The notes: a model not told the origin generated them from the letters alone. A stretch of DNA of 64,000 bases from an uncultured Dehalococcoidales bacterium (GCA_964521325.1 CAZFRL010000001.1:13383-77382); one strand, 5' to 3'. Shown: positions 9,353 to 51,790, counted from the stretch's first letter. A program made the numbers and translations.

Positions 9353-9427
9353 CGTTATTTGGTAGCTGCCTATTGAAAAATACTCTGGCTAGGTTACCCA
9401 ATCTCGTGGATTTTCAAACTAGGCTCC

Positions 9428-27032: not shown

Positions 27033-27698
27033 ATGGATAAGATCAAGATTTTGCTGGCTGAAGACCACATCATAGTCCGGGAAGGTAGCCACGAGCTGGT
27101 GGAGAAGGAACTGGACATGGAAGTCGTTGGTGAAGCCGGCGACGGAGTGGAAGCAGTTGAGCTAGCTAACAAGCTCAAGCCGGATGTAATCATAATGGAT
27201 ATCGCAATGCCTAAGCTTAATGGCATAGAAGCTACCAAACAGATAAAGGCGCTTAACCCAGCTATGGCAGTGCTAGTACTTACTGCGTATGATAATGACC
27301 AGTACATTTTCGCTCTCCTGGAAGCTGGAGCAGCCGGCTATTTACTCAAGAATGCACGAGGACGTGAACTAATTGACGCTATTCGAGAAGTACATGCTGG
27401 TGAGTCAGTTCTTCACCCCACAATTGCCCGCAGGGTCATAGAGCGCCTAACCTCTCAGACATCCACTGGCACCCAGTCAAAAGGGACAGAGCCTCTTACT
27501 GAACGCGAGATGGAGGTATTGAAGTTAGCCGCCAAAGGTATAAGGAATAAAGATATCTCTGAGCAACTTTTCCTTAGCCCACGTACAGTTCAAGCCCATC
27601 TAGGAAGCATTTTTAACAAGCTGGGTGTTGCTTCGCGTACGGAGGCCGTATTATGCGCTTTAAGAAGAGGCTGGGTGGACCTGGAAAACCTTCCCTAA
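27033..27698 (+). CDS. NarL/FixJ-family response regulator (REC + LuxR HTH)
   Basis: ILLAEDH...DVIIMDIAMPKLNG receiver domain; C-terminal LTEREMEVLKLAAKGIRNKDISEQLFLSPRTVQAHL. Confidence 0.9.
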   Translation: MDKIKILLAEDHIIVREGSHELVEKELDMEVVGEAGDGVEAVELANKLKPDVIIMDIAMPKLNGIEATKQIKALNPAMAVLVLTAYDNDQYIFALLEAGAAGYLLKNARGRELIDAIREVHAGESVLHPTIARRVIERLTSQTSTGTQSKGTEPLTEREMEVLKLAAKGIRNKDISEQLFLSPRTVQAHLGSIFNKLGVASRTEAVLCALRRGWVDLENLP

Positions 27699-27711
27699 CC
27701 TTCAACCTTAT

Positions 27712-29196
27712 TTGAAGCGCTCAAAGGGCAATATGCAAACGGGTCTACATCTAGGAAGCCGAGCATCACGGACTATACGTAACACCCATTTCTGGATTGT
27801 GCTGGCACTATTTGCCATTGTTATAGTCCTACATTACCCGCAACAGATACTAAACACAGAGTCAGCATCTCTTTTCTCATTTATTGGTCTAACCAGACAC
27901 GCCCTAGAGCGGGTTCTTTTCCTGCTGCCGGTGACCTACGCCGGCTTTGTCTTTGGGATAAGGGCAGGGCTGGCTAGCTTAGCCGTGGCACTAATCATCA
28001 TGCTGCCTCGTGTTTTTCTAATCTCTCTACACCCCCCTGATGCTCTGCTTGAGACCTGTAGCATTATCGTCATTGGTGGTGTGGTGAACTTGTTGCTTCA
28101 GATGTACCGAAAGGAAAAGGAACGCTATCAACAAGCCCTTTCGGCAGTAGAAGCAGCCCACCAGGAATTGCAGAAGTCGCAGAAAAGCTATAAAGACTTA
28201 TTCGAGGATGCCTATGATGCTATTTGGGTTCACGACTTAGATGGTAACATTCAAGCAGCAAATAGAGCAGCCGCTAAGCTTACCGGCTATCCTCTGGAAG
28301 AATTGTTGAAAATGAATGTGAAGTCCTTTCTCAGTGATAAAACCCTAAGCTTAGCTAGAGAGGTAAAGGGTAAGCTAATTCAACACCAACCTATGGATCT
28401 TCCCTACGAGCAGATACTGATTAGGAAGGATGGCTCAGAAGCAATATGCATGATTACCACTAACTTGATTACCAGTGATGGTAAGCCAAAGGGTTTTCAA
28501 AATATTGCCAGAGATGTCACCGAAGAGAAACACATGCAAGAGAATCTGCGCTACTATCTACAGCACATTACCAAAGCTCAAGAAGAAGAGCGCTCACGCA
28601 TCGCCCGAGAGCTTCACGATGATACAGCTCAGGAACTAGTTGTACTATCACGTCGTTTGGATAGCTTTATTTCTACTGCTGATCACTTATCACCGCCAGA
28701 TATCACATATCTGGAGGATATGAGAGAGCAAACCGATAAGATATTGGATGAGGTGCATCGTTTTAGCCAAGACTTACGACCATCAGTGCTAGACGACTTA
28801 GGCCTCTTGCCCGCACTGGAATCGTTGACCTCTGACCTGACTGAGCACTTCGGCATAGTTATTGGTACGGGTATAGTCGGCCCTGTGTGCCGTCTCCCCC
28901 CCGAGACAGAGTTAGTACTGTTCCGCATTGCTCAGGAAGCATTGAGGAACGTGTGGAAGCACTCCCAAGCAACAAAAGCCTGGGTTACAGTAGAATTTAA
29001 GGATGATAGGGTCATTTTGAATATTAAAGATAATGGCGAGGGCTTTGCCTTACCACAGAGAGTGGGAGACCTACCCGGCGAGGGCAAACTTGGGCTAGCC
29101 GGGATGCAAGAGCGAGCGCGGCTCATTGGAGGTAATCTAACTATACAATCGGAGTTGGACAAAGGGACAACCATAACTGTTGAGGTATCGGTTTAG
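27712..29196 (+). CDS. Membrane PAS sensor histidine kinase (HisKA_3/NarX-DegS type)
   Basis: N-terminal TM helices, a PAS region (YKDLFEDAYDAIWVHDLDGN), the H-box ARELHDDTAQ and an HATPase_c end. The start may be the ATG at 27733 instead of the TTG at 27712. Confidence 0.85.
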   Translation: MKRSKGNMQTGLHLGSRASRTIRNTHFWIVLALFAIVIVLHYPQQILNTESASLFSFIGLTRHALERVLFLLPVTYAGFVFGIRAGLASLAVALIIMLPRVFLISLHPPDALLETCSIIVIGGVVNLLLQMYRKEKERYQQALSAVEAAHQELQKSQKSYKDLFEDAYDAIWVHDLDGNIQAANRAAAKLTGYPLEELLKMNVKSFLSDKTLSLAREVKGKLIQHQPMDLPYEQILIRKDGSEAICMITTNLITSDGKPKGFQNIARDVTEEKHMQENLRYYLQHITKAQEEERSRIARELHDDTAQELVVLSRRLDSFISTADHLSPPDITYLEDMREQTDKILDEVHRFSQDLRPSVLDDLGLLPALESLTSDLTEHFGIVIGTGIVGPVCRLPPETELVLFRIAQEALRNVWKHSQATKAWVTVEFKDDRVILNIKDNGEGFALPQRVGDLPGEGKLGLAGMQERARLIGGNLTIQSELDKGTTITVEVSV

Positions 29197-30781: not shown

Positions 30782-30854
30782 TTCTTCATCCTCTCATCTA
30801 CACTTAAGCCTTCAACCCACTCGTTGTTCAATGAGAGCTCATTCTGCTCGCAAG

Positions 30855-31082
30855 TTAGTTATGGATTTCGTATCGGTTTACGAGCGGTCCAACAATGCCA
30901 ATAACCCCGATAACTGCAATTAGAGCGGTCAAGACGATGCTCCATGTCGGTGATGGATTAAAGATAGCCGCTCCAAGGAACCCTACCCATATCACTCCTA
31001 GCACGAGCATAGCTATCGTCCACACCTTCATTGTTTTCTCCGTCCATTCCGTTGCTTGCGTCCTGCGAGTTATCGCTACCAT
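30855..31082 (-). CDS. Small 2-TM membrane protein
   Basis: 75 aa with two hydrophobic helices. GGGAGG Shine-Dalgarno 7 nt before the ATG; directly downstream of repeat copy A. Confidence 0.4.
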   Translation of the reverse strand: MVAITRRTQATEWTEKTMKVWTIAMLVLGVIWVGFLGAAIFNPSPTWSIVLTALIAVIGVIGIVGPLVNRYEIHN

Positions 31083-31120
31083 TTTCTTGCCTCCCTTCTC
31101 GTGAATTTGAATAGTCCTTT

Positions 31121-31262
31121 ACCCACTCTCAGCTTACTATATTGCTTACCAAGTGCCATCCGATATACAGCTTACTTTTGGCTACCAGAGCAACCTAATT
31201 AGAAGCTCATTTTACTAGTTGTTTTCTCCTATACGATACGTTGAAACTAGGCATTTTTGCCT
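31121..31262 (-). repeat. ~140-bp intergenic element, copy A (inverted relative to B and C)
   Basis: The reverse complement aligns by eye with 41336-41475 along its whole length. Conserved blocks: GCCTAGTTTCAAC, CTAGTAAAA, GAGCTTCTAATTAGG, GATGGCACTTGGTAAGCAATATAGTAAGCTGAGAGTGGGT. Confidence 0.8.
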
Positions 31263-31516
31263 ATATGCCACCAGGGTAGGCCATGATTCATAATTGCAGA
31301 GGCAGAGATTTTTTAGAAGGGAACAACCGTTATCGCCGATGTTCCAATGCAATAATCGATGATAACAAAGAGAAACTTATTCTGCTCCAGCCCAAGCCCA
31401 AAAATCTTGCCCTATACAAGGCATTGACCCTATCCATAACTCCCCAGATACTTCCCGGCAGCAACTATGACCGTCTTACCCATCACCCCAAATAAAGGTA
31501 ATTCCCCTATAGCTTA

Positions 31517-31653
31517 AGCAAAATTGCTTAGTCCCAGCATGCTCAGCTGGCGAAAATGCTCAGAACAAGGGTTTTCTAATTAGGGCTTTCCAGCAGTCAA
31601 AAATAAGCGGTATATCAGATGGCGCTTGGTAAGCAATATAGTAAGCTGAGAGT
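31517..31653 (+). repeat. ~140-bp intergenic element, copy B (upstream of the Hdr-like operon)
   Basis: The last 80 nt (TTCTAATTAGGGCTTTCCAGCAGTCAAAAATAAGCGGTATATCAGATGGCGCTTGGTAAGCAATATAGTAAGCTGAGAGT) differ from copy C at about 10 positions. The 5' end AGCAAAATTGCTTAGT matches AGTAAAATTGCCTAGT. Confidence 0.8.
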
Positions 31654-31714
31654 TAATAGTTGGGCTGGTGGGGGGTTCCGACTAGCCAGACTCAGCAAAA
31701 AGGGGAGGAGAGAA

Positions 31715-32056
31715 ATGTCAGCGAAGGCCTATTTCCTAATCAGTGTGGTAAGGGAATTTTGCCAGTGCCAGTATGACTATCAAGAGGCAGTGAGAGAGCT
31801 GGAAGCTATACCCGAGGTAAAATCCATCGAGCCTATCTTTGGTGCGTGCGACCTTATAGTGAAAGTGGAGGCACCGATAAGGCTGATTTCCGTAGCTGAC
31901 AAGATATTACCCAAGAAATGGGTCAAACGGTTAGTTATCCTCAAGGTTGAGCCCTTCCGATTTAACGGAAACTCCACGGTTAGAGCTCGCGAGCTTCTGA
32001 AAGTTCGAAGTCCCCTGACAACGGAGAGTAAAGGCCTAACGGAGCAAGTAGTATAG
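31715..32056 (+). CDS. Stand-alone Lrp/AsnC-type ligand-binding (RAM) domain protein
   Basis: KAYFLISVV...LEAIPEVKSIEPIFGACDLIVKVEAP fits the AsnC_trans_reg pattern, and there is no HTH. Start moved to the ATG at 31715 (GGGGAGGAG SD 5 nt upstream), because the track start 31619 lies inside repeat B. Confidence 0.5.
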   Translation: MSAKAYFLISVVREFCQCQYDYQEAVRELEAIPEVKSIEPIFGACDLIVKVEAPIRLISVADKILPKKWVKRLVILKVEPFRFNGNSTVRARELLKVRSPLTTESKGLTEQVV

Positions 32057-32148
32057 ATGCTCGCTATTAGGCTTAGCATTGTTGTCGTTTTGTTCCTCAT
32101 GGGTTACATCACTAAACCTAATTAATAGGATAGAGAAAGGGTATCAAT

Positions 32149-33312
32149 ATGGTAGCAGTGAATCAGGTGATAGAAACGGTAGATGCTTTAACGGTAGATG
32201 CTCTACTGGAGGAAGGTGGTAAAGCCCTTGAATTATGCTACCAATGTGGCCTTTGTACTGGCGCTTGCCCCTGGAATTTAGTGAGGAGTTTCACCGTACG
32301 TAGGATGATCCATCAGGCGCAGTTGGGTTTAGTTGATTTCGAAGACGAAGACATGTGGCTCTGTGCTACTTGTGGGGCCTGTGTTGAGCAGTGTCCTCGC
32401 GGTGTAGAAGTAATAGATATTATAAGGGCTCTGCGGAGAACAATAGTGGAGTTAGGTGTGGGTAAGGTTCCCGAGTCACTTCGGCTCGCAGCAAAAAATA
32501 TTTCTGGCGTGGGTAATCCACTAGGAGAGCCACTGGAGAAACGGGCGGATTGGGCAGAAGGCATGGGCGTAAAGGCATTCACTGAGGGTACTGAGTTACT
32601 ATATTTCCCCTGCTGTCTCTCTTGTTATGATAATCATATGATAGGGATAGCCCAGGCAACAGCGGACATCCTCAAGAAAGTAAGGGTGGATTTTGGCACC
32701 CTAGGCACTAGAGAAACCTGCTGTGGAGAAGCAATTCGCAAAGCGGGAAACGAAAGCCTATTCCAAAGCCTAGCCCAAAAGAACATTGCTACATTTGCTG
32801 AAAATGGCGTTAGGAAAATCCTGGTCAGCTCACCTCATTGCTATCACACCTTTAAGAATGAGTACCCTGAGCTTGGAAGCAACTTTGAGGTGATTCATTC
32901 TACTCAGTATCTATTAGGGCTTATCAAAGACCAGAAGCTGAAGTTTACCAAAGAACTGCCCAAGAGAGTCGTCTACCATGACCCATGTTACCTTGGACGG
33001 CATAATGGCATATATGATGAGCCTCGAGAGATTTTAAGGAGCATCCCCGGCTTGGAGTTGGTTGAATTTCAAGATTATGGTGAAGATAGTATCTGCTGCG
33101 GCGGCGGGTCAGGAAGGCTTTGGATGGACACAAGGAAGGGAGAAAGGTTCTCTGATATTAGGCTGGAACAGGCTATTGATTTAGGGGCTGAAACACTAGC
33201 TGTTGCCTGTCCCTATTGCATGTGCATGTTTAAGGGCAGTCAGTTGACAATAGCTAAAGGTACGACTATCGAAGTCAAGGATGTCTCAGAATTAGTCCAG
33301 GAGGCAATGTAG
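32149..33312 (+). CDS. HdrD-type subunit 1 (HdrC-like 2x[4Fe-4S] fused to HdrB-like double CCG domain)
   Basis: CYQCGLCTGACPW and CATCGACVEQCPRG, then CCG motifs ETCCGEA and DPCYLGRH...SICCGGGSG. Confidence 0.8.
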   Translation: MVAVNQVIETVDALTVDALLEEGGKALELCYQCGLCTGACPWNLVRSFTVRRMIHQAQLGLVDFEDEDMWLCATCGACVEQCPRGVEVIDIIRALRRTIVELGVGKVPESLRLAAKNISGVGNPLGEPLEKRADWAEGMGVKAFTEGTELLYFPCCLSCYDNHMIGIAQATADILKKVRVDFGTLGTRETCCGEAIRKAGNESLFQSLAQKNIATFAENGVRKILVSSPHCYHTFKNEYPELGSNFEVIHSTQYLLGLIKDQKLKFTKELPKRVVYHDPCYLGRHNGIYDEPREILRSIPGLELVEFQDYGEDSICCGGGSGRLWMDTRKGERFSDIRLEQAIDLGAETLAVACPYCMCMFKGSQLTIAKGTTIEVKDVSELVQEAM

Positions 33313-33329
33313 CCAGCAGGGGCATAAAT

Positions 33330-35309
33330 ATGGATAGAAATGGGCACAGGAAAATCGGAGTATATGTTTGCCACTGTGGTTTAAATATTGCAGGCACAGT
33401 GGATGTAGAAAAGGTGGCTGAATATGCCGGAACTCTAGACGCGGTAGTAGTGTCCCGTCACTACAGGTATATGTGTTCTGAGCCGGGGCAAGCAATTATT
33501 AAAGATGATATCAAACAGTACGAACTCAATCGAGTTGTAGTTGCCTCATGCTCGCCGCGAATGCATGAGCTTACCTTTCGTGCCGCTTGCCAGGATGCCG
33601 GACTGAATCCCTACCTATATGAGCACGCAAATATCAGGGAGCAGTGCAGCTGGGTTCACAAAAATAGAGAGTTAGCTACAGAGAAAGCCAAAGCCTTGGT
33701 GCGTGCTGCAGTAAGGCGTGTGTTCTACCAAGAGCCTCTGGAGGTTAAGGAAGCACCCGTTAATCCGAATGTGTTAGTCGTAGGCGGAGGTATCGCTGGC
33801 ATCCAAGCTGCTTTGGATATCGCTAACGGTGAGCACAAGGTCTATATGGTGGAGAGGGAGCCCAGTATCGGGGGACACATGGCCCAGCTCGATAGGACTT
33901 TCCCTACCTTGGATTGCTCCGAATGCATTCTTACCCCCAAGATGACTGAAGTTGGGCACCATCCTTTTATCGAGCTTCTAGCCTATAGCGAGGTAGAGGC
34001 AGTCTCAGGCTCTATAGGCAATTTTAAGGTGAAGGTCAGGAAGAAGGCACGGTATGTGGATGAAAGTAAATGCATCGGCTGCGGTGTGTGTGAGGAGAAA
34101 TGTCCGTGGAAGGTGGATAGTGAGTTTGAGGTCGGCTTAGCCAAGAGGAAAGCGATTTACATCCCATTTGCCCAGGCTATCCCCAATGTTGCCACTATCG
34201 ATAGGGAGCATTGCGCTTATTTCAAAACAGGTAAATGCCGAGCTTGTGAGAAGTTCTGCGAGGCTAAAGCTATTGATTTTGAACAGACGGATGAGAGTAT
34301 TGAAATAGAAGTGGGCTCAATCATCGTAACCACTGGCTACGATATATTTGACCCCTCGGTTATATCTCAATATGGCTATGGTAGATATGAAAATGTTATC
34401 ACCAGTCTTGAATTTGAGAGGATAACCTGTGCCGGAGGGCCAACTGGAGGGAGAATTCTCTTAAAGGATGGTCGGGAACCAGAAAGTGTAGCCATTATCC
34501 ACTGCGTAGGTAGCCGTGACCAGAAGTATCATGAGTATTGCTCTCGGGTTTGTTGCATGTATGGGCTTAAATATGCCCATCTGATAAGAGAGTTTACAAA
34601 TGCCAAAGTGTATGAAATGTATATTGATATGCGTTGCTTTGGAGAGGGGTATGAAGAGTTCTATAAGCGTGTATCGGAAGAAGGCGTCAAGTTCATAAGA
34701 GGAAAGGTGGCTAGGGTTACCGACCGCACTATAAGTGAAGAGGAGAAGGGAAAGCTAATTGTCCTTGTTGAAGATACCTTACTGGGGAAGATGATACGGG
34801 TTCCGGTAGATATGGTTATCCTATGCATCGCCCTAGAAGCGCGCTCTGACACAGAGCAAGTTGCCAAAATTTTTAGTCTTAACCAAAGAGCAGATGGCTT
34901 CTTCATGGAGCGACATGTCAAGCTTGACCCGGTAGCTACAGCCTCCGACGGGGTTTTTATCGCTGGCTGTTGCGAAGGTCCAAAGGATATCCCTGATACT
35001 GTAGCTCAAGCCTCAGCAGCGGCAGCCAAAGCCTTGTCGCTGATAAGCAAAGGCAGGATTACGCTCGAGGCTGCCACAGCCCATGTAGATGAGATTCTAT
35101 GCCAGGGCTGTGGGCGGTGTGAAGAAACATGTGATTTTCACGCCCCTAAGGTCATTCATAGGGATGGGCGCTGGGTTTCCACGGTAAATGAAACCGTGTG
35201 TAAGGGCTGCGGCGCCTGTGCCGTTGTTTGCCCTACGGGAGCTATGTCCATCAGGAACTTTACCCGGAAGCAGATACTCAGCATGGTCGATGCCTTAGTT
35301 GAGGTGTAA
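33330..35309 (+). CDS. HdrA-like flavoprotein 1 (full-length type)
   Basis: N-terminal VYVCHCGLNIAG cluster, VVGGGIAGIQAALD FAD fold, inserted ferredoxin CIGCGVCEEKCP/CRACEKFC, CSRVCCMYGLK, and C-terminal CQGCGRCEETC/CKGCGACAVVCP. Confidence 0.85.
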   Translation: MDRNGHRKIGVYVCHCGLNIAGTVDVEKVAEYAGTLDAVVVSRHYRYMCSEPGQAIIKDDIKQYELNRVVVASCSPRMHELTFRAACQDAGLNPYLYEHANIREQCSWVHKNRELATEKAKALVRAAVRRVFYQEPLEVKEAPVNPNVLVVGGGIAGIQAALDIANGEHKVYMVEREPSIGGHMAQLDRTFPTLDCSECILTPKMTEVGHHPFIELLAYSEVEAVSGSIGNFKVKVRKKARYVDESKCIGCGVCEEKCPWKVDSEFEVGLAKRKAIYIPFAQAIPNVATIDREHCAYFKTGKCRACEKFCEAKAIDFEQTDESIEIEVGSIIVTTGYDIFDPSVISQYGYGRYENVITSLEFERITCAGGPTGGRILLKDGREPESVAIIHCVGSRDQKYHEYCSRVCCMYGLKYAHLIREFTNAKVYEMYIDMRCFGEGYEEFYKRVSEEGVKFIRGKVARVTDRTISEEEKGKLIVLVEDTLLGKMIRVPVDMVILCIALEARSDTEQVAKIFSLNQRADGFFMERHVKLDPVATASDGVFIAGCCEGPKDIPDTVAQASAAAAKALSLISKGRITLEAATAHVDEILCQGCGRCEETCDFHAPKVIHRDGRWVSTVNETVCKGCGACAVVCPTGAMSIRNFTRKQILSMVDALVEV

Positions 35310-35311
35310 CA

Positions 35312-35743
35312 ATGAATGAATTTGAACCTGTAATTATAGCCTTTTGCTGCAATTGGTGTACTTATGCAGCCGCCGATATAGCCGGAACAAGCCGTATCCA
35401 GTATCCGCACAATGTGAGTATCGTGAGGGTAATGTGTAGTGGGATGGTAGACCCCATATATGTTCTCAGGGCCTTTGAGGGGGGCGCTGACGGGGTCATC
35501 ATTGCCGGCTGTAGTTACGTAGACTGTCATTACATCAATGGGCCAGTAAAGTGCGATGCCATGTTTGAAAGACTGAAGGGGATAGTTCATACCCTTGGCT
35601 TAGAGGATGAGCGCTTGAGGCGCGAAATGATATCTACCTCGGAGTCGATAGTATTTGCCCACGTAGTTGAGGAGATGGTTGGCCAGCTTAAAAAAGTGGG
35701 TCCCTCACCTTTCAGAAAGGTCAGAGAGGACATCACAGTATGA
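35312..35743 (+). CDS. MvhD-like [2Fe-2S] electron-transfer subunit
   Basis: IIAFCCNWCTYAAADIAG...MCSGMVDP...IAGCSYVDCHY is typical of the methyl-viologen-reducing hydrogenase delta subunit family. Confidence 0.85.
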   Translation: MNEFEPVIIAFCCNWCTYAAADIAGTSRIQYPHNVSIVRVMCSGMVDPIYVLRAFEGGADGVIIAGCSYVDCHYINGPVKCDAMFERLKGIVHTLGLEDERLRREMISTSESIVFAHVVEEMVGQLKKVGPSPFRKVREDITV

Positions 35744-36888
35744 CCTTAGATGATATTATCAAGGAAACCAACACGTTCTATTGCCTAGAGTGCGGCAAAT
35801 GTTCCAGCATATGCCCTATATCCAGATATAACCCGGCTTACTCACCACGGGTGATGGTGGAACACGCACTTTTAGGACTGGAAGATGATTTGGTTTATAA
35901 CCGGGAGTTATTTTCTTGCTTGACCTGTTATGCTTGCCAACTCAAGTGTCCTTCCGATGTCAACTACCCGCTCTTCATCCAGAAAATGAGAGCCATAGCC
36001 TCAAATAATGGTGAACACGGGGAGTGCGCTCATTCCGGAACCTTGCAATCTCTGACACGACTCGTGACGAATCCGGCCGTCAAGCAGAGGAGACTGGAAT
36101 GGCTATCTGATGAATTTCGTACCTCTGACCGGAGTGATGTCCTTTTCTTTGTTGGTTGTGCCCCCTATTTTGAGCACATCTTTGACTTTGAGACAAAAAG
36201 CATTGACATTGTAAAAGCTAGCTTAAAAATACTCAATTACTTTGGTATCGAGCCTGTGCTGCTTCCAAACGAGAGATGCTGTGGGCACGACATGCTCTGG
36301 ACGGGAGATGTGGAGACCTTCAGGAGACTGGCTGAGCATAACGCAGCTCTGATAAGTGAGTCTGGAGTAAAAAAGATAATCTTCTCCTGTCCCGAGTGTT
36401 ACCAGACGTTCAAAGAGAATTACCCCAATTATGTGAAGATAGATTGCGAGTTACAGCATATCAGCGAATTCCTATCTGAGGCGATAGAAAAAGATGAATT
36501 GAGTTTTAAGGAGACTAAAAGAAAAGTAACCTACCACGACCCCTGTAGACTCGGTAGGCATATGGGAATATACGAACCGCCAAGGAAAGTGCTTGAGGCG
36601 ATTCCAGGCATAGAATTGGTTGAAATGAAACATAGTAAAGAGGAATCTCTTTGTTGCGGCACCAGCGCTTTTACTAACTGCGACTTATACTCAAAACAGA
36701 TAAGGGTTGAGCGGTTGCTTGAAGCGAAAGATACTGGTGCCGAGACTCTCATAACATCATGTCCGAAATGTCAGATTCACTTCAGATGTGCCATGGTAAA
36801 TAAAGGAGAGGAAAAGGGGCCGGACGTCGAGATTGAGGTTATGGATATGGTGAATTTAGTGGCAAATGCTTTGGAGGAGAAGAATTAA
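35740..36888 (+). CDS. HdrD-type subunit 2 (HdrC-like + HdrB-like CCG domains)
   Basis: CLECGKCSSICP and CLTCYACQLKCP, then ERCCGHD and DPCRLGRH...SLCCGTS. 4-nt overlap with the mvhD-like gene. Confidence 0.8.
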   Translation: MTLDDIIKETNTFYCLECGKCSSICPISRYNPAYSPRVMVEHALLGLEDDLVYNRELFSCLTCYACQLKCPSDVNYPLFIQKMRAIASNNGEHGECAHSGTLQSLTRLVTNPAVKQRRLEWLSDEFRTSDRSDVLFFVGCAPYFEHIFDFETKSIDIVKASLKILNYFGIEPVLLPNERCCGHDMLWTGDVETFRRLAEHNAALISESGVKKIIFSCPECYQTFKENYPNYVKIDCELQHISEFLSEAIEKDELSFKETKRKVTYHDPCRLGRHMGIYEPPRKVLEAIPGIELVEMKHSKEESLCCGTSAFTNCDLYSKQIRVERLLEAKDTGAETLITSCPKCQIHFRCAMVNKGEEKGPDVEIEVMDMVNLVANALEEKN

Positions 36889-39635
36889 TGACTGAAGCTG
36901 CGAATAGCCCTGCCTTAGTAATCGGCGGCGGTATAGCTGGCATCCAAGCCTCTATTGACCTGGCTAATATGGGCTTTCCGGTTTATCTGGTGGAGAGATC
37001 ACCCAGTATCGGGGGCAGGATGGCTCAGCTAGACAAGACCTTCCCCACTAATGATTGTGCCATGTGCATCCTTGCCCCCAAGATGAATGAGTGTTATCGA
37101 CACCAAAATATCAGGGTATTAAGTTATTCAGAAGTCGCTGAGGTTGGGGGTGAACTGGGTAACTTTGAAGTCAAGATACTGAGGAAACCAAGGTATATCG
37201 ATGAGACCAAGTGTACTGGTTGCGGGGAATGCGCCCAGGTATGCCCGGTCGAAGTCAAAAGCGAATTCGACCAAGGGATGGGCAACAGAAAAGCAATATA
37301 CAAACCGTTTGCTCAAGCGATTCCCAACCTTTATGTCATTGATAAAAGGGGAACTCCTCCTTGCAGAGTAGCCTGTCCTGCCGGGGTGGATATCCAGGGC
37401 TATGTTGCCCTCATTTCTCAGGGCAAGTTTAAAGAAGCACTCAGTCTCATCAGACAGAAGATTACTCTACCCGCTACTGTCGGTAGGGTATGCACTCACC
37501 CATGTGAGACGGAGTGCAATCGGGGGGAAGTCGATGAACCAATTGCCATCGCCGCTCTTAAACGGTTCGTGGCTGACTATGAGCTGACTGTGGGGGTGGA
37601 GGAGGTGACACCTGCCCCCCGGACCAAAGACGAGAAAGTAGCTGTTATCGGTTCTGGGCCAGCTGGCTTAACTGCGGCTCATGATTTAGTGCTCATGGGC
37701 TACGAGGTAACCATTTTTGAGGCGCTGCCTGTCCCCGGTGGTATGTTGGCAGTAGGCATTCCTGAATACCGCTTACCCAAGAAGGTGCTTCAAACCGAGA
37801 TTGAGGCTATCCAGAAACTGGGGGTCGAGATAAAATTAAATAGCCCTGTAGGCAAAAACGGCTTGACTCTAGATGACCTCCGGCAACAGGATCACAAGGC
37901 GATTTTCATTGCCGTGGGTGCCCACCGGAGTATGAAGCTTGATATCCCCGGCGAGAACTTGAAAGGTGTCTATCACGGTGTCTCCTTCCTGAAGGATGTC
38001 AACCTTGGGAAGAAGGTTATGGTTGGGGAAAAGGTAGCAGTAGTTGGTGGTGGCAATGTAGCCATTGATGCTGCTCGAACCGCCCTCCGCCTCGGCTCCA
38101 GAGAAGTAACTATTCTATATCGTAGGTCGAGGCAGGAGATGCCAGCAAGTCAAGAGGAGATAGCGGAGGCTGAGCATGAGGGGGTTAAGATTCATTACCT
38201 AGCTACCCCAGTTACAATTCTGGGCAAGGATAGGAAAGTCGTGGGTATGAAGTGTATTCGGATGAAGCTGGGAGAGCCTGATGCCAGCGGTAGGAGACGA
38301 CCTATACCCATTAAGGACTCAGAGTTTACTATCGATGTGGACATGGTTATTCCAGCCATAGGTCAAGTGCCCGACCTCGCCTTCCTACCCGAAAATAGTA
38401 GCTTCCAAGTATCACCCAGAGGAACATTTGAGGTCGACAGCAAAAGCCTAGCTACCGCTATACCTGGGGTGTTTGCTGGCGGAGATGCTGTGCTTGGACC
38501 GGCCTCTGTGGTACAGGCTATAGCAACCGGACACAGAGCAGCCACTGCCATTGACAACTACCTGCAAGGGGAAACACTCTTGCCTGAAGAAGAGCCACTC
38601 CCGACTGTAACCATTGAGGATATAGACCTAACCGACGTAGAGAAGAGAAATCGGTTGGTAATGCCTACTATTCCCTCCAAAGAGAGGTTAGCCGGCTTTA
38701 CCGAGGTAAACCTTGGCCTCAACCAGGAGATGGCTATAGAGGAAGCAAAGAGATGCCTAAACTGTGGTGTTTGCTCTGGATGCCGGGAGTGTGAAAAGGT
38801 TTGCCAGGCTAAGGCTATAAACCACGAAATGAAGGAGGAATACCTGAACCTGAATGTTGGTAGCATTATCCTGGCTACCGGACTGGACTTTTATGATATT
38901 TCAAAGCTTGGAGAATATGGCTACGGAAGGATAGCCAATGTAATCACTGCCATTGAGTACGAGAGGCTGACCTCAGCCTCCGGTCCTACCGAGGGTGAAC
39001 TCAAGCGCCCTTCAGATGGGAAGATTCCATCCAATACAGCTTTCATTCAGTGTGTTGGCTGCCGTGATTTCAAAAACAAGCCATACTGCTCAAGCGTATG
39101 CTGTATGTGTGCTACCAAAGAGGCAATACTAGCCTATGAGCACCAGCCGGGAACAAAGTCAACCATCTTCTATATGGACCTGAGAGCGGTGGGCAAACGC
39201 TTCCAAGAGTATGTCACCCGAGCCAAAGAAGAATACAATGTAACGTATGTCAGAGGCCGTCCTGGGAGAATCGAAGTAAACCCTGAAAATGGTAATCCGA
39301 TTATCTGGCATGAGGATACTACTACCGGAGAAACGAAACCGTTTGAGACCGAGCTAGTGATTCTCTCCCAGGCTATGACTCCCTCCGGTGGCATTGAAAG
39401 GCTAGCCAGCATATTGGGCATAAGTCTAGACCAACATGGGTTTGCCGAAGTCCCAGATAAGTTATTCTACCCTCTGGACACCACGAGACCTGGTATCTTT
39501 GCCTGTGGCTATGCTCATAGTCCACGGGATATCCCTGACTCCGTGGTTCAAGGCTCAGCGGCGGCGGCTAGAGTGGCTGAAGCGGTGGCATTTAGAGTGC
39601 CTAGTCTGGCAACGGGAGGTGTTTACCGTGACTGA
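36888..39635 (+). CDS. HdrA-like flavoprotein 2 with inserted GltD/NfnB-like NAD(P)H oxidoreductase module
   Basis: Starts directly at the FAD fold (VIGGGIAGIQASID, no CHCG domain). The insert has PPCRVACPAGVDIQGY...CTHPCETECNRG, VAVIGSGPAGLTAAHDL and VAVVGGGNVAIDAART. It then returns to an HdrA-type C-half (CVGCRD...CSSVCCMCATKEA). Confidence 0.8.
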   Translation: MTEAANSPALVIGGGIAGIQASIDLANMGFPVYLVERSPSIGGRMAQLDKTFPTNDCAMCILAPKMNECYRHQNIRVLSYSEVAEVGGELGNFEVKILRKPRYIDETKCTGCGECAQVCPVEVKSEFDQGMGNRKAIYKPFAQAIPNLYVIDKRGTPPCRVACPAGVDIQGYVALISQGKFKEALSLIRQKITLPATVGRVCTHPCETECNRGEVDEPIAIAALKRFVADYELTVGVEEVTPAPRTKDEKVAVIGSGPAGLTAAHDLVLMGYEVTIFEALPVPGGMLAVGIPEYRLPKKVLQTEIEAIQKLGVEIKLNSPVGKNGLTLDDLRQQDHKAIFIAVGAHRSMKLDIPGENLKGVYHGVSFLKDVNLGKKVMVGEKVAVVGGGNVAIDAARTALRLGSREVTILYRRSRQEMPASQEEIAEAEHEGVKIHYLATPVTILGKDRKVVGMKCIRMKLGEPDASGRRRPIPIKDSEFTIDVDMVIPAIGQVPDLAFLPENSSFQVSPRGTFEVDSKSLATAIPGVFAGGDAVLGPASVVQAIATGHRAATAIDNYLQGETLLPEEEPLPTVTIEDIDLTDVEKRNRLVMPTIPSKERLAGFTEVNLGLNQEMAIEEAKRCLNCGVCSGCRECEKVCQAKAINHEMKEEYLNLNVGSIILATGLDFYDISKLGEYGYGRIANVITAIEYERLTSASGPTEGELKRPSDGKIPSNTAFIQCVGCRDFKNKPYCSSVCCMCATKEAILAYEHQPGTKSTIFYMDLRAVGKRFQEYVTRAKEEYNVTYVRGRPGRIEVNPENGNPIIWHEDTTTGETKPFETELVILSQAMTPSGGIERLASILGISLDQHGFAEVPDKLFYPLDTTRPGIFACGYAHSPRDIPDSVVQGSAAAARVAEAVAFRVPSLATGGVYRD

Positions 39636-41307
39636 GGTTCGCATTGGTGTCTTCATATGTCACTGTGGCAAGAATATCGGAGGCTACGTGGACGTCCCCC
39701 AGGTGGTGGAGTACGCCAGACAACTGCCGAACGTTGCCTATGCTGAGCATAACCTATACACGTGCTCCGAAGAGGGAACCTCCTCAATAAAGAAGAGTAT
39801 CCTAGAATATACCTTAAACCGGGTTGTAGTAGCCTCCTGCACTCCGAGAACCCATGAGCCATTATTTAGGACTGCCTGTGAGGAAGCCGGCCTCAACAAG
39901 TATCTATTTGAATTTGCTAACATCAGGGAGCAAGTCTCCTGGGTTCATATGAACCTGCCACAGGAGGCCACTGAAAAAGCTAAGAGCCTGGTTAGAGCAG
40001 CGGTAGCTAAAGCCCGATTACTTGAGCCATTAGAAGAAGTTGAGGTGGAAGTGCTTCCATCCTGTATGGTAATCGGTGGCGGTATAGCCGGAATGAGCGC
40101 AACTTTAAATCTAGCGAAACAAGGTTTCGATGTTCATCTTGTAGAAAAAGGGGCAGAGCTTGGTGGTACTCTGTTGGATCTCCATAAGCTCTTCCCCACT
40201 AACAAGGAAGCAAGAGACTTAATTAATCCGCTAATACACGAGTTGAAGGAACACGATAGGATAAAAACCTATCTTGGGACGAAAGTTAAAGAAGTAGCCG
40301 GGTTTATCGGCAATTTCGATGTTACTTTAGACCACGGAGATAGGGAGAGCAAGCTTAATGTAGGCACGATTATAGTTGCCATTGGAGCTACGGAATTCAA
40401 ACCAATAGGCCAATATAGTTATGGAGAAATGACAGGGGTCCTTACTCAACTGGAGCTGGAAAAGCAAATGAAAGAGGGTACGGTCGATGGCCAGAATATT
40501 GTGATGATCAACTGTGTTGGCGCTCGGGTTGCTGAGAGAGCATATTGTGGCCGCTTCTGCTGCCTAACTGCAATAAAGAATGCTGCGCTCATTAAGGAAA
40601 ATAACCCAGCGGCAAAGGTATGGATTCTTCATCGTGATTTGATGGCTTACGGAGTGGATTTCGAGGATTACTACCGGAAGGCTATGGAAGCGGGTGTCAG
40701 ATTCATCCGTTACAGCCTGACAAGCCCGCTCAAGGTTATCGGGAATGGGAGGGTTGAACGGGTGAAGGTATACCACCAATTAATACAGAAGGAAATTGAG
40801 CTCCCCTGCGATACAGTGGTACTCACCACTCCCCTTATTCCCCACGTTGATAATGAGGAGCTCTCCAAGATGCTCAAGGTTCCCTTGGGCCAGGAGGGTT
40901 TTTTCCTAGAAGCACACCTCAAACTACAGCCGGTAGAATTTGCTACAGATGGCATCTATATCTGTGGCTCGGCCCGCTGGCCTGTAGAGGTGACTGAGGC
41001 TATCTTCCAGGGTTATGCCAGTGCCTCAAAGGCAGCAATACCCATGAGCAGGGGCTATGTGAGACCTGAGGCCATAACCGCCTCTGTAAATAAAGATGCC
41101 TGTGCCGGCTGTGGTATCTGTGTTACTCTGTGCCCATATAGCGCCATAACGATAAACACTGAGAATGGCAGAAGGGTTTCCAATGTTATTTCTGCGCTGT
41201 GTAAAGGTTGCGGAACCTGTGGAGCTGCCTGTCCCTCCGGGGCAATCTCAATGAACCACTTCACCGATGAGCAGCTCTTCGCCCAAATAGAGGCTTTGGT
41301 GGCGTGA
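39628..41307 (+). CDS. HdrA-like flavoprotein 3 (lacks the inserted ferredoxin domain)
   Basis: Start reassigned to the GTG at 39628 (GGGAGG 8 nt upstream, GTGACTGA overlap with the previous stop). Begins VTEVRIGVFICHCGKNIGGYVD, parallel to HdrA-1. Also MVIGGGIAGMSATL, CGRFCCLTAIK, and C-terminal CAGCGICVTLCP/CKGCGTCGAACP. Confidence 0.8.
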   Translation: MTEVRIGVFICHCGKNIGGYVDVPQVVEYARQLPNVAYAEHNLYTCSEEGTSSIKKSILEYTLNRVVVASCTPRTHEPLFRTACEEAGLNKYLFEFANIREQVSWVHMNLPQEATEKAKSLVRAAVAKARLLEPLEEVEVEVLPSCMVIGGGIAGMSATLNLAKQGFDVHLVEKGAELGGTLLDLHKLFPTNKEARDLINPLIHELKEHDRIKTYLGTKVKEVAGFIGNFDVTLDHGDRESKLNVGTIIVAIGATEFKPIGQYSYGEMTGVLTQLELEKQMKEGTVDGQNIVMINCVGARVAERAYCGRFCCLTAIKNAALIKENNPAAKVWILHRDLMAYGVDFEDYYRKAMEAGVRFIRYSLTSPLKVIGNGRVERVKVYHQLIQKEIELPCDTVVLTTPLIPHVDNEELSKMLKVPLGQEGFFLEAHLKLQPVEFATDGIYICGSARWPVEVTEAIFQGYASASKAAIPMSRGYVRPEAITASVNKDACAGCGICVTLCPYSAITINTENGRRVSNVISALCKGCGTCGAACPSGAISMNHFTDEQLFAQIEALVA

Positions 41308-41335
41308 TAAGGCAAGGGGTATAAATAGTGTGATA

Positions 41336-41475
41336 AGTAAAATTGCCTAGTTTCAACATATTGGTAGTAGAAAATAACTAGTAAAACGAGCTTCTAATTA
41401 GGTCTTTCCAGTAGTCAAAGATTAGCGTTATAGCAGATGGTGCTTGGCAAGCAATATAGTAAGCTAAGAGTGGGT
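41336..41475 (+). repeat. ~140-bp intergenic element, copy C (downstream of the Hdr-like operon)
   Basis: Same orientation as copy B. Core GATGGTGCTTGGCAAGCAATATAGTAAGCTAAGAGTGGGT. No plus-strand gene follows until 41844, and two minus-strand tRNAs intervene. Confidence 0.8.
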
Positions 41476-41529
41476 ACGGAGCCAGACGAGATTAGCTGTT
41501 GCGAAATGAGGAACTAATGGTGGGAATAG

Positions 41530-41618
<89 letters not shown>

Positions 41619-41666
41619 ATAAATAATACCTGGGCGAGAAGTCGGATTATATTCTATGTAAATGGG

Positions 41667-41757
41667 TGGCGGAGAGGGTGGGATTCGAACCCACGCTCCA
41701 CTAAATGCGGAGACCGCTTTTCGAGAGCGGCACCATGAACCACTCGGACACCTCTCC
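41667..41757 (-). tRNA. tRNA-Ser (anticodon CGA)
   Basis: Reverse complement GGAGAGGTGTCCGAGTGGTTCATGGTGCCGCTCTCGAAAAGCGGTCTCCGCATTTAGTGGAGCGTGGGTTCGAATCCCACCCTCTCCGCCA. Anticodon loop CTCGAAA, long variable arm, encoded CCA. Confidence 0.9.
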
Positions 41758-41843
41758 TCAATTATAGCAATTATAACACATCACCCCACTATGTCAGCTA
41801 TATGCTTTACGAGCTTGCCCCGATATAGTATGCTGTCAGCAGG

Positions 41844-42869
41844 TTGTTAGTTGAAGCTTTGATTTGGTTGAAGTTCCTGTTTTGTCTTGGCGTTATCCTG
41901 TTCGCCGGGACAAGGCTAGCCCGCTATGGGGATGCTATTGCCAAGAAAACGGGGCTGGGGGGGATATGGGTAGGTCTGGTGCTTCTGGCTGCCATTACCT
42001 CTATACCGGAGCTGGTTACCGGCGTAAGCTCAGCTGCCCTGGTTAAACTCCCCGATTTAGCCGTGGGTACTCTCTTCGGCAGTTGCATGTTCAATCTGGC
42101 TATTCTGGCTTTACTCGATATCCTGCATCGCCGCACCCCTGTTTTAAGTGAGGTAAGGCGATGGCATATAGCATTGGCCGGTGTTGGGATATTGCTTATC
42201 GCTGTCGCTGCCGTTAGCATCTTTGCCGGGGAAAGGCTTTCCGGGTTAGTTCTGGGGTGGGTGGGCGTCCCCAGCATTATCATCCTCGTCCTGTATTTAG
42301 TATCAGTATGGGGGATGTTCCGCTTTGAGCGCAGCCAGCCTGTACAGCGGGTAGAGGCTGCCTCACCACAATATGCGGAGATTCCAATAAGGTCGGTGTA
42401 CTTCAGATTTACACTGGCGGCTATAGCGGTTATTGGTGCTGGAATATGGTTGTCATTTATTGGTGATGAGATTGGTCAGACTTATGCTTGGGATGCCAGC
42501 TTTGTCGGGAGTCTATTTCTAGCGATCAGTTCCTCGATGCCGGAGTTAGTGGTTACTATTGCTGCCCTCCGTCTGGGCGCCATAGATATGGCAGTCGCTG
42601 ACATACTAGGCAGCAATATGTTTAACATCGCCATTATTTTCCTGGTTGATCTTTCCTTTAGGCGAGGGGCTATTCTGTCTTCGGTGTCAGGTGCTCATCT
42701 CACCACAGCTATAGTAGCCGTGGTGATGACTCTGCTGGTTATTATTGGGCTCCGATTTCGACAGAAGAGTAAGACCTTTATTGTCATCAGTTGGTATGCT
42801 CTCGCCTTAATCGGGCTCTATATTTTTGGCGCTTATGCTTTGTTTGTTTCGGGCGTAGGTTTGGGGTGA
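41844..42869 (+). CDS. CaCA-family cation/Ca2+ antiporter (YrbG-like)
   Basis: Two alpha-repeat regions (SIPELVTG...GSCMFNLAIL and SMPELVVT...GSNMFNIAII) in about 10 TM helices. Confidence 0.75.
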   Translation: MLVEALIWLKFLFCLGVILFAGTRLARYGDAIAKKTGLGGIWVGLVLLAAITSIPELVTGVSSAALVKLPDLAVGTLFGSCMFNLAILALLDILHRRTPVLSEVRRWHIALAGVGILLIAVAAVSIFAGERLSGLVLGWVGVPSIIILVLYLVSVWGMFRFERSQPVQRVEAASPQYAEIPIRSVYFRFTLAAIAVIGAGIWLSFIGDEIGQTYAWDASFVGSLFLAISSSMPELVVTIAALRLGAIDMAVADILGSNMFNIAIIFLVDLSFRRGAILSSVSGAHLTTAIVAVVMTLLVIIGLRFRQKSKTFIVISWYALALIGLYIFGAYALFVSGVGLG

Positions 42870-43152: not shown

Positions 43153-43473
43153 GTGGCTAGGGAAGAAGTGATTAGTAGTGTAGAAACTATCGAGGGTGAA
43201 GCGGAAAAGATACTTGAAGAGGCTCGAAGCAGAGCTAACGAAATTCTCCGTAAGGCCAATGAAGAAGCCAGCAAAATTCTCTCGTCCAAGGTGACCCTGG
43301 ATGAAGTCAAAAAGGAGCGTGAGCAGATTATACATAAGGCTGAAAAGGAAGCTAACAAAGAGGTCGAAGAGTCGAAGAAGAAAGCAGCTGAGGTTAGAAC
43401 TGCTACTGATAAGGAAGTGGAGAAAATTGCCAAGCGCATAGTAAACCTCATCACTGGGGTAGAGTCGGAATGA
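43153..43473 (+). CDS. atpH: A/V-type ATPase subunit H (peripheral-stalk coiled coil)
   Basis: 106-aa Glu/Lys-rich coiled coil. AGGAGG 6 nt before the GTG; first gene of the operon, overlapping the next by 4 nt. Confidence 0.7.
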   Translation: MAREEVISSVETIEGEAEKILEEARSRANEILRKANEEASKILSSKVTLDEVKKEREQIIHKAEKEANKEVEESKKKAAEVRTATDKEVEKIAKRIVNLITGVESE

Positions 43474-45479: not shown

Positions 45480-45504
45480 TCCAAGAAAAGGAGGGTTAAA
45501 AAAA

Positions 45505-45975
45505 ATGATATTTGATCCAACTTCTTTAGCTACTCTAGGCGGAGCCTTAGCCTTGATTGGTGGCTTGGTCGGTTCCTCAATAGGTATAGCCAAGGCAGCG
45601 TCTGCCGGAACAGCTACCTTATCTGAGGATCCGGGGCAATTCAGGAGTGTTATAGTGCTATCGTCTCTACCAATGACTCAAAGCTTCTATGGGCTCATAG
45701 TATTGATACTTATTATAACAGCAGTAGTGCCTAAAGTGGTAGAAACAGGTGGCAGTGGCATGACTGTGCTTGGCATTGGGCTCATAGCATGCTTGGCGGA
45801 ACTGTTCTCAGCAATATACCAGGGCAGTGTGTGTGCTTCGGGTATCTCACTCCTGCCCAAGACAAAGGGACAGATATTTACCAGTAGCATGATGCTAGCT
45901 GTGTTTGTCGAGCTACTGGGTGTGTTGGGACTCGTGTTCACCATAATGGCATTAACTATGTTAGGGCTTATGTAG
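45505..45975 (+). CDS. atpK: A/V-type ATPase proteolipid subunit K (duplicated 4-TM c subunit)
   Basis: 156 aa, four helices. LPMTQSFYG, SAIYQGSV and VFVELLG align by eye with the Enterococcus hirae NtpK ion-site segments. Confidence 0.85.
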   Translation: MIFDPTSLATLGGALALIGGLVGSSIGIAKAASAGTATLSEDPGQFRSVIVLSSLPMTQSFYGLIVLILIITAVVPKVVETGGSGMTVLGIGLIACLAELFSAIYQGSVCASGISLLPKTKGQIFTSSMMLAVFVELLGVLGLVFTIMALTMLGLM

Positions 45976-45985
45976 AGGGAGTCTT

Positions 45986-46576: not shown

Positions 46577-46577
46577 G

Positions 46578-47974: not shown

Positions 47975-48001
47975 CCCGAGTTTTACGGAGGTAATAAGGC
48001 T

Positions 48002-51144: not shown

Positions 51145-51153
51145 GATGGGTGA

Positions 51154-51786: not shown

Positions 51787-51790
51787 ATAG

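Follow-up and report, generated by a model that had tools for sequence, protein, structure and literature searches.

A seven-gene Hdr-like cluster with a split HdrL in a Dehalococcoidales bacterium as a probable NADPH-linked electron-bifurcation system

We analysed a heterodisulfide reductase (Hdr)-like gene cluster on a stretch of 64,000 nt from an uncultured Dehalococcoidales bacterium (GCA_964521325.1 CAZFRL010000001.1:13383-77382; the whole stretch is called the window below). The listing of open reading frames (ORFs) and their translation revealed seven genes in the same direction at 31715-41307 on the plus strand, in the order RAM-like gene, HdrD1, HdrA-1, MvhD, HdrD2, HdrA-2 and HdrA-3 (Table 1). 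The first four are spaced by 92 nt, 17 nt and 2 nt, and the following junctions are overlaps of 4, 1 and 8 nt. All seven genes are preceded by a Shine-Dalgarno-like motif; HdrA-3 starts with GTG behind a GGAGGTG site, and its N-terminus (VRIGVFICHCG) matches that of HdrA-1. The overlaps and the ribosome-binding site ahead of each gene suggested co-translation. The locus, gene order, 2-nt gap, three overlaps and tight coupling described in the initial annotation were thus all borne out, and its Hdr and MvhD assignments held in Pfam and NCBIfam searches of the cluster proteins. None of the products contains a hydrophobic segment. The three flavoproteins counted earlier are indeed three HdrA-type proteins, but the cluster encodes four Rossmann sites of the flavin adenine dinucleotide (FAD) type, since HdrA-2 has two.

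Table 1 Features of the Hdr-like cluster and its flanks, with the evidence for each assignment
Feature	Position	Strand	Evidence
Two-component pair, probable cluster regulator	27033..29196	+	Pfam
RAM-like stand-alone domain protein, 113 aa	31715..32056	+	Pfam and family profile against PDB
HdrD1, fused HdrC-HdrB-like subunit	32149..33312	+	Pfam, NCBIfam, motifs
HdrA-1, canonical full-length HdrA	33330..35309	+	Alignment to 5odc_A
MvhD-type [2Fe-2S] adaptor, 143 aa	35312..35743	+	Pfam FlpD, NCBIfam VhuD
HdrD2, fused HdrC-HdrB-like subunit	35740..36888	+	Pfam, NCBIfam, motifs
HdrA-2, N-unit of split HdrL, 915 aa	36888..39635	+	Domains, tree, fused homologues
Putative NADPH cassette within HdrA-2 (residues ~153-626)	37344..38765	+	PDB matches to StnC/Bfu-Nfn type
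HdrA-3, C-unit of split HdrL, 559 aa	39628..41307	+	Ligand map, tree
Two tRNA-Ser genes (GGA, CGA)	41530..41757	-	Opposite strand, after HdrA-3

A search for homologues of HdrA-2 returned two length classes, of ~900-915 aa and ~1,470-1,565 aa. We then scanned genomes for HdrL-type loci, which yielded at least 600 stretches, of which at least 593 were confirmed as relatives, and kept 80 loci from many phyla, 45 of them complete (L numbers below refer to this set). A single ORF of ~1,475-1,500 aa, colinear with residues 10-890 of HdrA-2 followed by residues 3-557 of HdrA-3, was present in 41 of the 45 complete loci, and the gene was split in the other four. A split HdrL was found in L081-L087, L002, L052 and L068, and its presence in 7 related contigs indicated that it is real and not an assembly error.

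Alignment of the three HdrAs to the methanogen enzyme 5odc_A showed that HdrA-2 and HdrA-3 together contain exactly one copy of each accessory HdrA domain (Table 2). When the ligand survey was extended to 78 sequences, including 32 N-units and 33 C-units, this complementarity was 100% for the domain-specific Cys: N-units had the CxxC and the inserted-ferredoxin Cys in 100% and the Cys of the N- and C-terminal domains in 0%, C-units showed the reverse, and the HA4 Cys were 100% conserved in both. The FAD cores were placed in a neighbour-joining tree, where HdrA-3 joined the C-halves of the fused HdrL and tandem HdrA proteins (bootstrap 95/100), HdrA-2 the corresponding N-halves (61/100), and HdrA-1 with the canonical single HdrAs, the methanogen enzyme included. 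The fused homologues, complementary domains and tree show that HdrA-2 and HdrA-3 are not two of three divergent paralogues, as first annotated, but the N- and C-units of one HdrL ("large HdrA", a tandem HdrA), which is a single protein of ~1,480 aa in most other genomes.

Table 2 HdrA domains and ligands in the three HdrA-type proteins
Element	HdrA-1	HdrA-2	HdrA-3
N-terminal cluster domain	Present	Absent	Present
CxxC beside flavin	C196/C199	C57/C60	Lost (NKEARD)
Inserted ferredoxin domain	Present, unobstructed	Present, split by NADPH cassette	Deleted
E356 and K409 equivalents	Present (E356, K409)	E692, K744	Present
HA4 cluster Cys	Present	Present	Present
C-terminal di-cluster ferredoxin domain	Present	Absent	Present

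The insert in HdrA-2 is a cassette of the StnC/Bfu-Nfn type, with FAD, an NADPH Rossmann fold and two [4Fe-4S] clusters, whose best PDB matches were 9bov_A (454 bits), 9n5u_A (443) and StnC (8oh5_C, 407), each scoring higher than NfnB (4ylf_B, 375). Within the inserted ferredoxin domain it separates the first cluster motif (C109-C119) from the second (C629-C639). Compared with stand-alone NfnB, its segments are permuted, with NfnB 49-465 corresponding to HdrA-2 158-561 and NfnB 7-45 (..RCLxC) to HdrA-2 588-626. The permuted order therefore places the halves of the distal-cluster motif at both ends of the insert, beside the motifs of the HdrA ferredoxin domain, and because StnC, 9bov_A and 9n5u_A share it, the cassette is a common insertable unit. 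At the non-Cys ligand position of the flavin-proximal cluster, which is Glu in NfnB, HdrA-2 has K225, aligned with K170 of StnC and invariant in 26 homologues. Motifs of the GGGNVA and YRRS type indicate NADPH; both occur in HdrA-2, in the same form as in NfnB, and point to NADPH as the nucleotide bound. The flavin of StnC has been shown by experiment to be non-bifurcating and to pass NADPH electrons into the Fe-S chain (PMC10482914). As initially annotated, this NAD(P)H module was the only substrate-binding module visible in the window.

Related arrangements were observed elsewhere in the scan. In L071 (9884-15961, Fidelibacterota), a 789-aa fusion of the NADPH cassette, a C-terminal-type ferredoxin domain and MvhD lies beside an HdrD2-like gene and an HdrA-MvhD fusion, and reads as a Rosetta-stone link from the NADPH module to MvhD. 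BamE-like tandem HdrAs of ~1,000-1,080 aa, which lack the NADPH cassette, occur in L002, L003, L016, L020, L026, L059, L062 and L065, often near an HdrL of the same genome; in most of these loci the next ORF is MvhD-like, and some of these ORFs are longer, up to 327 aa. In L003 and L020 the N- and C-halves of the BamE-like protein pair with the local HdrL halves in the tree, pointing to a recent duplication in which the cassette was gained or lost.

HdrA-1 matched 5odc_A over its full length (residues 8-655, 750 bits) and retains every ligand of that enzyme, namely those of FAD, K409/E356, the CxxC and those of six [4Fe-4S] clusters, while its NCBIfam HdrA2 score of 863 bits was under that family's cutoff of 1100. 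The MvhD product matched Pfam FlpD (E 1.7e-45), NCBIfam VhuD (128 bits) and the C-terminal part of HdrA2 (160 bits). An MvhD gene directly follows HdrL in 32 of the 45 complete loci. In L007, L008, L014, L024, L030 and L064, the MvhD ORFs after HdrL stop at ~66-79 residues, with homology sometimes resuming downstream, which is consistent with an in-frame TGA for selenocysteine; Cys67 of the window MvhD falls near the point where these ORFs end.

HdrD1 and HdrD2, which share 33% identity, each contain a Fer4 dicluster and two CCG domains (Pfam E 1e-30 to 3e-31). The two CxxCxxCxxxCP and two CCG motifs per protein given in the initial annotation were counted correctly, but the full ligand set is found only in HdrD2, which has 10/10 CCG-domain Cys of HdrB and two CX~39CCX35CXXC motifs. 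HdrD1 has 9/10, the CxxC of its first CCG domain reading S-S-P-H-C (SSPHC versus SCPEC in an alignment of 14 HdrD1/HdrD2 sequences). The Ser replaces the first Cys of the CxxC in 7/7 HdrD1 orthologues examined; the residues aligned with it in HdrB (5odc_B) and 9ojn_A are the leading Cys of CNGC and CPHC, respectively. The alignments of the CCG ligands gave this one Cys-to-Ser exchange in HdrD1, and HdrA-2 retains the CxxC, Glu and Lys of the bifurcation-type FAD site. Two catalytic CCG modules, as proposed earlier, have become uncertain, with the ligands complete in HdrD2 and a conserved exchange in a cluster ligand of HdrD1.

The position of this exchange in the non-cubane-cluster motif bears on an explanation that we consider unlikely, in which one or both HdrDs would be an electron output to another carrier (ETF, a quinone-linked or other redox protein) and not a disulfide reductase. 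A precedent for such an output is BamDEF of the class II benzoyl-CoA reductase of Geobacter metallireducens, where an HdrD-like subunit and an MvhD-like adaptor accompany two HdrA units fused into a pseudo-dimer that has a single bifurcating FAD; there a Cys-to-Ser exchange in BamD remodels the distal non-cubane cluster, the heterodisulfide pocket is blocked, and BamD binds no heterodisulfide and reduces ETF (cryo-EM preprint, bioRxiv 10.64898/2026.04.10.717634). Both HdrDs had TfrB, LdhH and GlpC-type families, not HdrB, as their top NCBIfam matches, and among solved structures HdrD1 best matched 9ojn_A (236 bits), an "iron-sulfur-binding reductase" of 1,042 aa, with HdrB and HdrC scoring far lower. 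Thiol-carrier candidates (DsrC, TusE, LbpA, CoM/CoB genes) were not visible in the window. However, HdrD2 keeps the whole CCG-domain Cys set of HdrB, the Ser of HdrD1 and that of BamD are likened by description from the preprint text, and a search with Pfam on the major ORFs of the 64-kb window found no ETF or quinone-linked partner.

The same Pfam search of the window found no hydrogenase, formate dehydrogenase, Flx, MetF, Qmo, Dsr or Apr genes and neither a BamB/BamC tungsten module nor a BamGHI input module, so the lack of hydrogenase, formate dehydrogenase, Flx and MetF partners annotated for the surrounding ~15 kb holds across all 64 kb. The window contains no mcr genes, tblastn of the window with MvhG, MvhA, HycI and NfnA gave no match, and the spacer at 41308-41843 contains the two tRNA-Ser genes and no mvh remnant. 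Membership in QmoABC, FlxABCD-HdrABC, MetFV-HdrABC-MvhD or class II benzoyl-CoA reductase systems was considered and rejected, the respective partner genes being absent from the window.

Searching genomes for the gene order showed that the six Hdr/Mvh genes are arranged identically in 7 independent contigs, which fall into two clades. Clade A (the window, L081, L085 and L087; HdrA-2 identity 78-84%) has one or more RAM-like genes, the six Hdr/Mvh genes, and a NarL-type regulator with a PAS-HisKA_3 kinase, with no hydrogenase genes beside the cluster. In clade B (L082, L083/L084 and L086; 60-64%), the same six genes are directly followed by mvhD-mvhG-mvhA-hycI, with a separate NfnAB pair in between only in L082 and L086. 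The two tRNA-Ser genes end the operon of the window at the site where these sister lineages carry mvhD-mvhG-mvhA-hycI. The missing hydrogenase partner of the initial annotation is thus true of the window and its closest relatives, but it is a trait of this lineage's locus and not of the cluster type.

Given clade B, it is conceivable, although we hold it to be improbable, that the locus belongs to an H2-dependent Mvh-Hdr system, in which an MvhAG [NiFe] hydrogenase encoded elsewhere in the genome would dock via MvhD and H2 would reduce NADP+ (through the low-potential HdrL branch) and the HdrD acceptor; where H2 pressures are low, as in subsurface habitats, such a system would be of use. Besides the hydrogenase genes that follow the six-gene set in L082, L083/L084 and L086, HdrL-MvhD-MvhGA arrangements occur in three other phyla (L018, Acidobacteriota; L044, Chloroflexota; L062, Thermotogota), a HydS-like sensor kinase is encoded upstream in L086, and in solved HdrA and BamE the branch that here bears the NADP(H) cassette serves as the low-potential outlet. 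All four clade-A contigs, however, lack a hydrogenase beside the cluster and have the PAS kinase/regulator pair instead, no hydrogenase gene or remnant was found in the 64-kb window, and the second MvhD found ahead of mvhGA in clade B (50-53% identity to the window MvhD in L083 and L086) has no counterpart in clade A.

Two further features of clade B were observed. At L086 1-3225, a sensor kinase with a [FeFe]-hydrogenase-like input domain (Fe_hyd_lg_C) and, behind it, a sigma-54 response regulator are encoded upstream of the Hdr-Mvh cluster, which suggests H2- or redox-responsive control; L082 1-3531 has the same layout, with the kinase cut by the locus end so that the HisKA/HATPase part alone is visible. 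The HdrA-1 position in these two loci (L082 5064-8429, L086 5055-8429) is occupied by a canonical HdrA of 1,121-1,124 aa with its own GltD-type insert, and since this protein groups with the HdrA-1 orthologues, an independent insertion of an NADPH cassette is implied.

From these data we lean towards the view that the six Hdr/Mvh genes encode a soluble, cytoplasmic, NADPH-linked Hdr-type flavin/iron-sulfur electron-bifurcation system of two modules. Module 1 would comprise HdrD1, HdrA-1 and MvhD, a split equivalent of the HdrA2B2C2/HdrABC-MvhD type with its ferredoxin-interacting domain free. Module 2 would comprise HdrD2, HdrA-2 and HdrA-3, the last two forming a pseudo-dimer with one complete electron path. 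For an HdrA pseudo-dimer working with an HdrD-like subunit and an MvhD-like adaptor, BamDEF is a structural precedent. In module 2, the HdrA-2 flavin with its CxxC, Glu and Lys is the likely bifurcation site. From there, HA4 of HdrA-2 would lead to HdrD2, as HA4 leads to the HdrC/HdrD-type subunit in the solved HdrA and BamE structures; the ferredoxin-domain branch would be hard-wired to NADP(H) in place of free ferredoxin; and the third branch would run through the C-terminal di-cluster domain of HdrA-3 and MvhD, as in solved complexes.

NADP(H) would then react at the non-bifurcating StnC-like flavin and be reversibly coupled to a high-potential HdrD acceptor, either a disulfide or another carrier. 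The third partner linked by MvhD is probably MvhAG/H2 in clade B, and in the window its sole encoded candidate is module 1, which would exchange electrons with ferredoxin. Because this sole candidate, HdrA-1/HdrD1, has a free ferredoxin site, we favour an NADPH-ferredoxin-acceptor bifurcating or confurcating system, whose net reaction would be NADPH-dependent ferredoxin reduction paid for by reduction of the HdrD acceptor, or the reverse. The bacterial housekeeping genes in the window (DprA, TopA, trigger factor, ClpP, EF-P and TilS) identify the host as a bacterium, and the nearest named HdrA-2 homologues are from Dehalococcoidia (62% identity). Of what had been called a large flavin-based bifurcating or confurcating assembly in a non-methanogen, the Hdr-type system and the non-methanogen host are supported and the flavin-based bifurcation or confurcation is probable; the disulfide role of HdrD1 has come into doubt.

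The gene context also bears on whether the two modules work together. They might be two independent co-transcribed enzymes with no electron transfer between them, HdrD1/HdrA-1/MvhD being a ferredoxin- (or F420H2-) linked HdrA2B2C2-like enzyme and HdrD2/HdrA-2/HdrA-3 a self-contained NADPH-dependent HdrL reductase, which we regard as possible but not probable. Both triplets come with an HdrD and an FAD/HA4 route of their own, the Smithella triplets (L007, L008) lie ~5 kb apart and each have their own MvhD, a canonical HdrA is near HdrL in just 4 of the 45 complete loci, and HdrA2B2C2 of M. acetivorans is reported to work alone (PMC5296606). The 4-nt overlap of MvhD and HdrD2 and a six-gene order that is invariant in the 7 contigs speak against such independence. 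Moreover, HdrL normally has its own MvhD after it, so the single MvhD here would be shared, and a canonical HdrA(BC/D) beside HdrL recurs in distant, unrelated phyla (L007/L008, Smithella; L025, Bacillota; L030, Gemmatimonadota) and in S. fumaroxidans (PMC5947623).

Several points weigh against the coupled NADPH-linked system that we favour. Co-transcription is no proof of a single complex, and scans of 30700-42000 for sigma-70 promoters and intrinsic terminators gave counts at or below the shuffled expectation and were uninformative. There is only one MvhD in the locus for two modules. The conserved Cys-to-Ser exchange means that HdrD1 may not reduce a disulfide, and none of the thiol-carrier candidates named above is visible in the window. 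By analogy with canonical HdrA and BamE, in which the inserted ferredoxin domain is the low-potential outlet, NADP+ as acceptor would be at least as plausible as NADPH as donor. Judging from the sister lineages with mvhDGA-hycI, H2 may be a real third substrate here too, via genes beyond the window. Finally, the HdrL class has no purified or solved member in the literature and PDB entries searched, and both the substrates and the direction are ones that we infer.

A more elaborate form of coupling, which we consider very doubtful, is a six-protein particle in which the bifurcating flavins of HdrA-2 and HdrA-1 act in series through the single MvhD, as a hydrogenase-independent two-stage redox amplifier. 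NADPH would enter via the StnC-type cassette, and the first bifurcation would give one electron to HdrD2. The low-potential electron would pass to HdrA-1 and be bifurcated again between HdrD1 and ferredoxin, and the Cys-to-Ser HdrD1 might serve a non-thiol acceptor. Class II benzoyl-CoA reductase, for which a hierarchical coupling of modules has been reported, would offer an analogy.

The architecture of the cluster is not unprecedented. HdrL with MvhD was described in 2009 from Desulfobacterium autotrophicum HRM2 (PMC2702500), the HdrABC/FeS/MvhD/HdrL cluster of Syntrophobacter fumaroxidans (Sfum_0819-0824) in 2018, with the proteins abundant under sulfate reduction (PMC5947623), and NfnB-inserted HdrA and multi-HdrA clusters with HdrD from ANME-1 in 2022 (PMC9012536), and GltD-inserted HdrAs were classed as type III in 2025 (PMC12054007). 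Searches of the literature and PDB found no prior assignment of this arrangement to a biochemically characterised complex, and neither biochemistry nor a structure for the HdrL/HdrABC/MvhD class.

With the described HdrL clusters, the locus shares an HdrA-like protein with a GltD-type NAD(P)H module, an MvhD without MvhA, an adjoining canonical HdrA with HdrB/C-type subunits (S. fumaroxidans type), a non-methanogenic anaerobe as host and a proposed NAD(P)H-linked bifurcation or confurcation. Unlike in those clusters, no dsr genes are nearby in the window, so DsrC is no obvious acceptor. New relative to them are the split of HdrL into two genes (915 and 559 aa, 8-nt overlap), the fusion of HdrB and HdrC as HdrD in two copies, one with the Cys-to-Ser exchange, the location of MvhD upstream of HdrL (two genes before HdrA-2) instead of downstream, and the lack of a hydrogenase and of selenocysteine.

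The type III HdrAs (HdrA9-11) of ANME-1 and Bathyarchaeota (PMC12054007, PMC9012536) have the insert at the same site in the inserted ferredoxin domain and retain K409/E356 (K744/E692 in HdrA-2), and ANME-1 likewise has several HdrA copies, sometimes with HdrD. In contrast to these archaeal proteins, for which NAD+ is predicted, the window protein has a bacterial host and a GXGXXA motif with YRRS (NADPH), and it lacks the N- and C-terminal domains, which the separate HdrA-3 supplies. The cassette itself resembles that of StnC (StnABC, 8oh5; PMC10482914) and the Bfu-type Nfn (9bov, 9n5u) in its segment order (core, then ..RCLxC), its insertion in a host Fe-S domain and its Lys ligand (K170/K225). 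It differs from StnC in that the host protein is HdrA and not NuoG/FdhF-like, that there is no StnAB (HydBC-type) bifurcating module, and that Cys114 of StnC is Ile in HdrA-2; it differs from NfnAB in having K225 for the Glu of NfnB and in the lack of NfnA in the window (tblastn).

BamDEF, compared here by description, is similar in its tandem HdrA with permuted complementary domains, its Cys-to-Ser HdrD-like subunit and its MvhD-type adaptor, and it illustrates how two bifurcation modules could be coupled. However, the two units are separate genes in the window and one in BamE, BamE lacks the NADPH cassette, BamF is >100 aa longer than the 143-aa, Cys-only MvhD and contains selenocysteine, the second FAD of BamE has Gln for the Lys that HdrA-3 keeps, and the window lacks BamB/C and BamGHI. 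Finally, like MvhAGD-HdrABC (5odc), the locus has a full-length HdrA with all cofactor ligands (HdrA-1), an MvhD and, in HdrD2, all HdrC and HdrB Cys ligands, whereas it differs in lacking MvhA/MvhG, in its bacterial host, in the fusion of HdrB and HdrC and in the extra HdrL module with NADPH input; CoM-S-S-CoB is unlikely as the substrate here.

The RAM-like gene at the head of the cluster starts at 31715 with a AGGGGAGGAG ribosome-binding site, whereas a longer ORF from 31619 has none. For the single protein, the RAM-domain assignment of the initial annotation was weak (Pfam AsnC_trans_reg, E 6e-4, below the Pfam cutoff), but it was supported family-wide, as 10/10 members matched AsnC_trans_reg alone (best E 7e-6) and the top PDB matches of the family profile were the stand-alone RAM proteins 2e1a, 2cvi and 2zbc (75-83 aa). 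Family profiles were used because a single-sequence AlphaFold2 model was poor (pLDDT 46). The protein has no DNA-binding domain, and as a RAM-like (Lrp/AsnC ligand-binding) protein it is likely a small-ligand sensor or regulator; a role as thiol/disulfide substrate was ruled out, its Cys not being conserved among the paralogues. Across clade A, 1-5 RAM-like genes stand in tandem upstream of HdrD1 (one copy in the window), whereas in the clade B loci L083 and L086 the region upstream of HdrD1 yielded no member of this family. The RAM-like protein is no conserved core part of the Hdr cluster and would be a lineage-specific accessory. Stretches of tandem paralogues were seen at L081 211-3098, L085 3558-5161 and L087 4432-5171, and in L081 and L085 an unrelated, internally repeated small ORF lies among the copies.

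The two-component pair upstream consists of a NarL/LuxR-type response regulator (27033-27698) and a PAS-HisKA_3 histidine kinase (27712-29196). Its orthologues (73-76% identity for the regulator, 65% for the kinase) lie directly downstream of HdrA-3 in L081, L085 and L087, and the pair probably controls expression of the cluster. Between the pair and the cluster (29222-31714), a lone Proton_antipo_M (NuoL/MrpD-like) gene is encoded on the minus strand with no other complex I/Mrp genes nearby, and the ~930 bp separating it from the RAM-like gene contain no convincing ORF and no Rfam match. At 43470-52228 on the plus strand, starting 2.2 kb downstream of the Hdr cluster, this genome with its bacterial housekeeping genes also encodes a V/A-type ATPase in a complete operon (I, K, E, C, F, A, B, D), with the gene of a DUF61 protein after it. 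At 8927-10636, on the minus strand, HcyBio (COG1900) lies beside an NIL-domain ferredoxin, a gene pair that in methanogens serves sulfide-dependent homocysteine synthesis.

Hdr-like clusters outside methanogens are among the commonest unexplained redox modules of anaerobe genomes, as the number of HdrL-type loci in our scan illustrates. The present locus is a naturally dissected HdrL, with its two units as separate genes, a recognisable non-bifurcating cassette of the StnC type and two distinguishable HdrDs, and the operon is a reasonable candidate for heterologous expression. Current ideas are not overturned by it. Since sister lineages differ only by the presence of the Mvh hydrogenase, their contrast gives a testable prediction on the branches that serve H2, NADP(H), ferredoxin and the acceptor.

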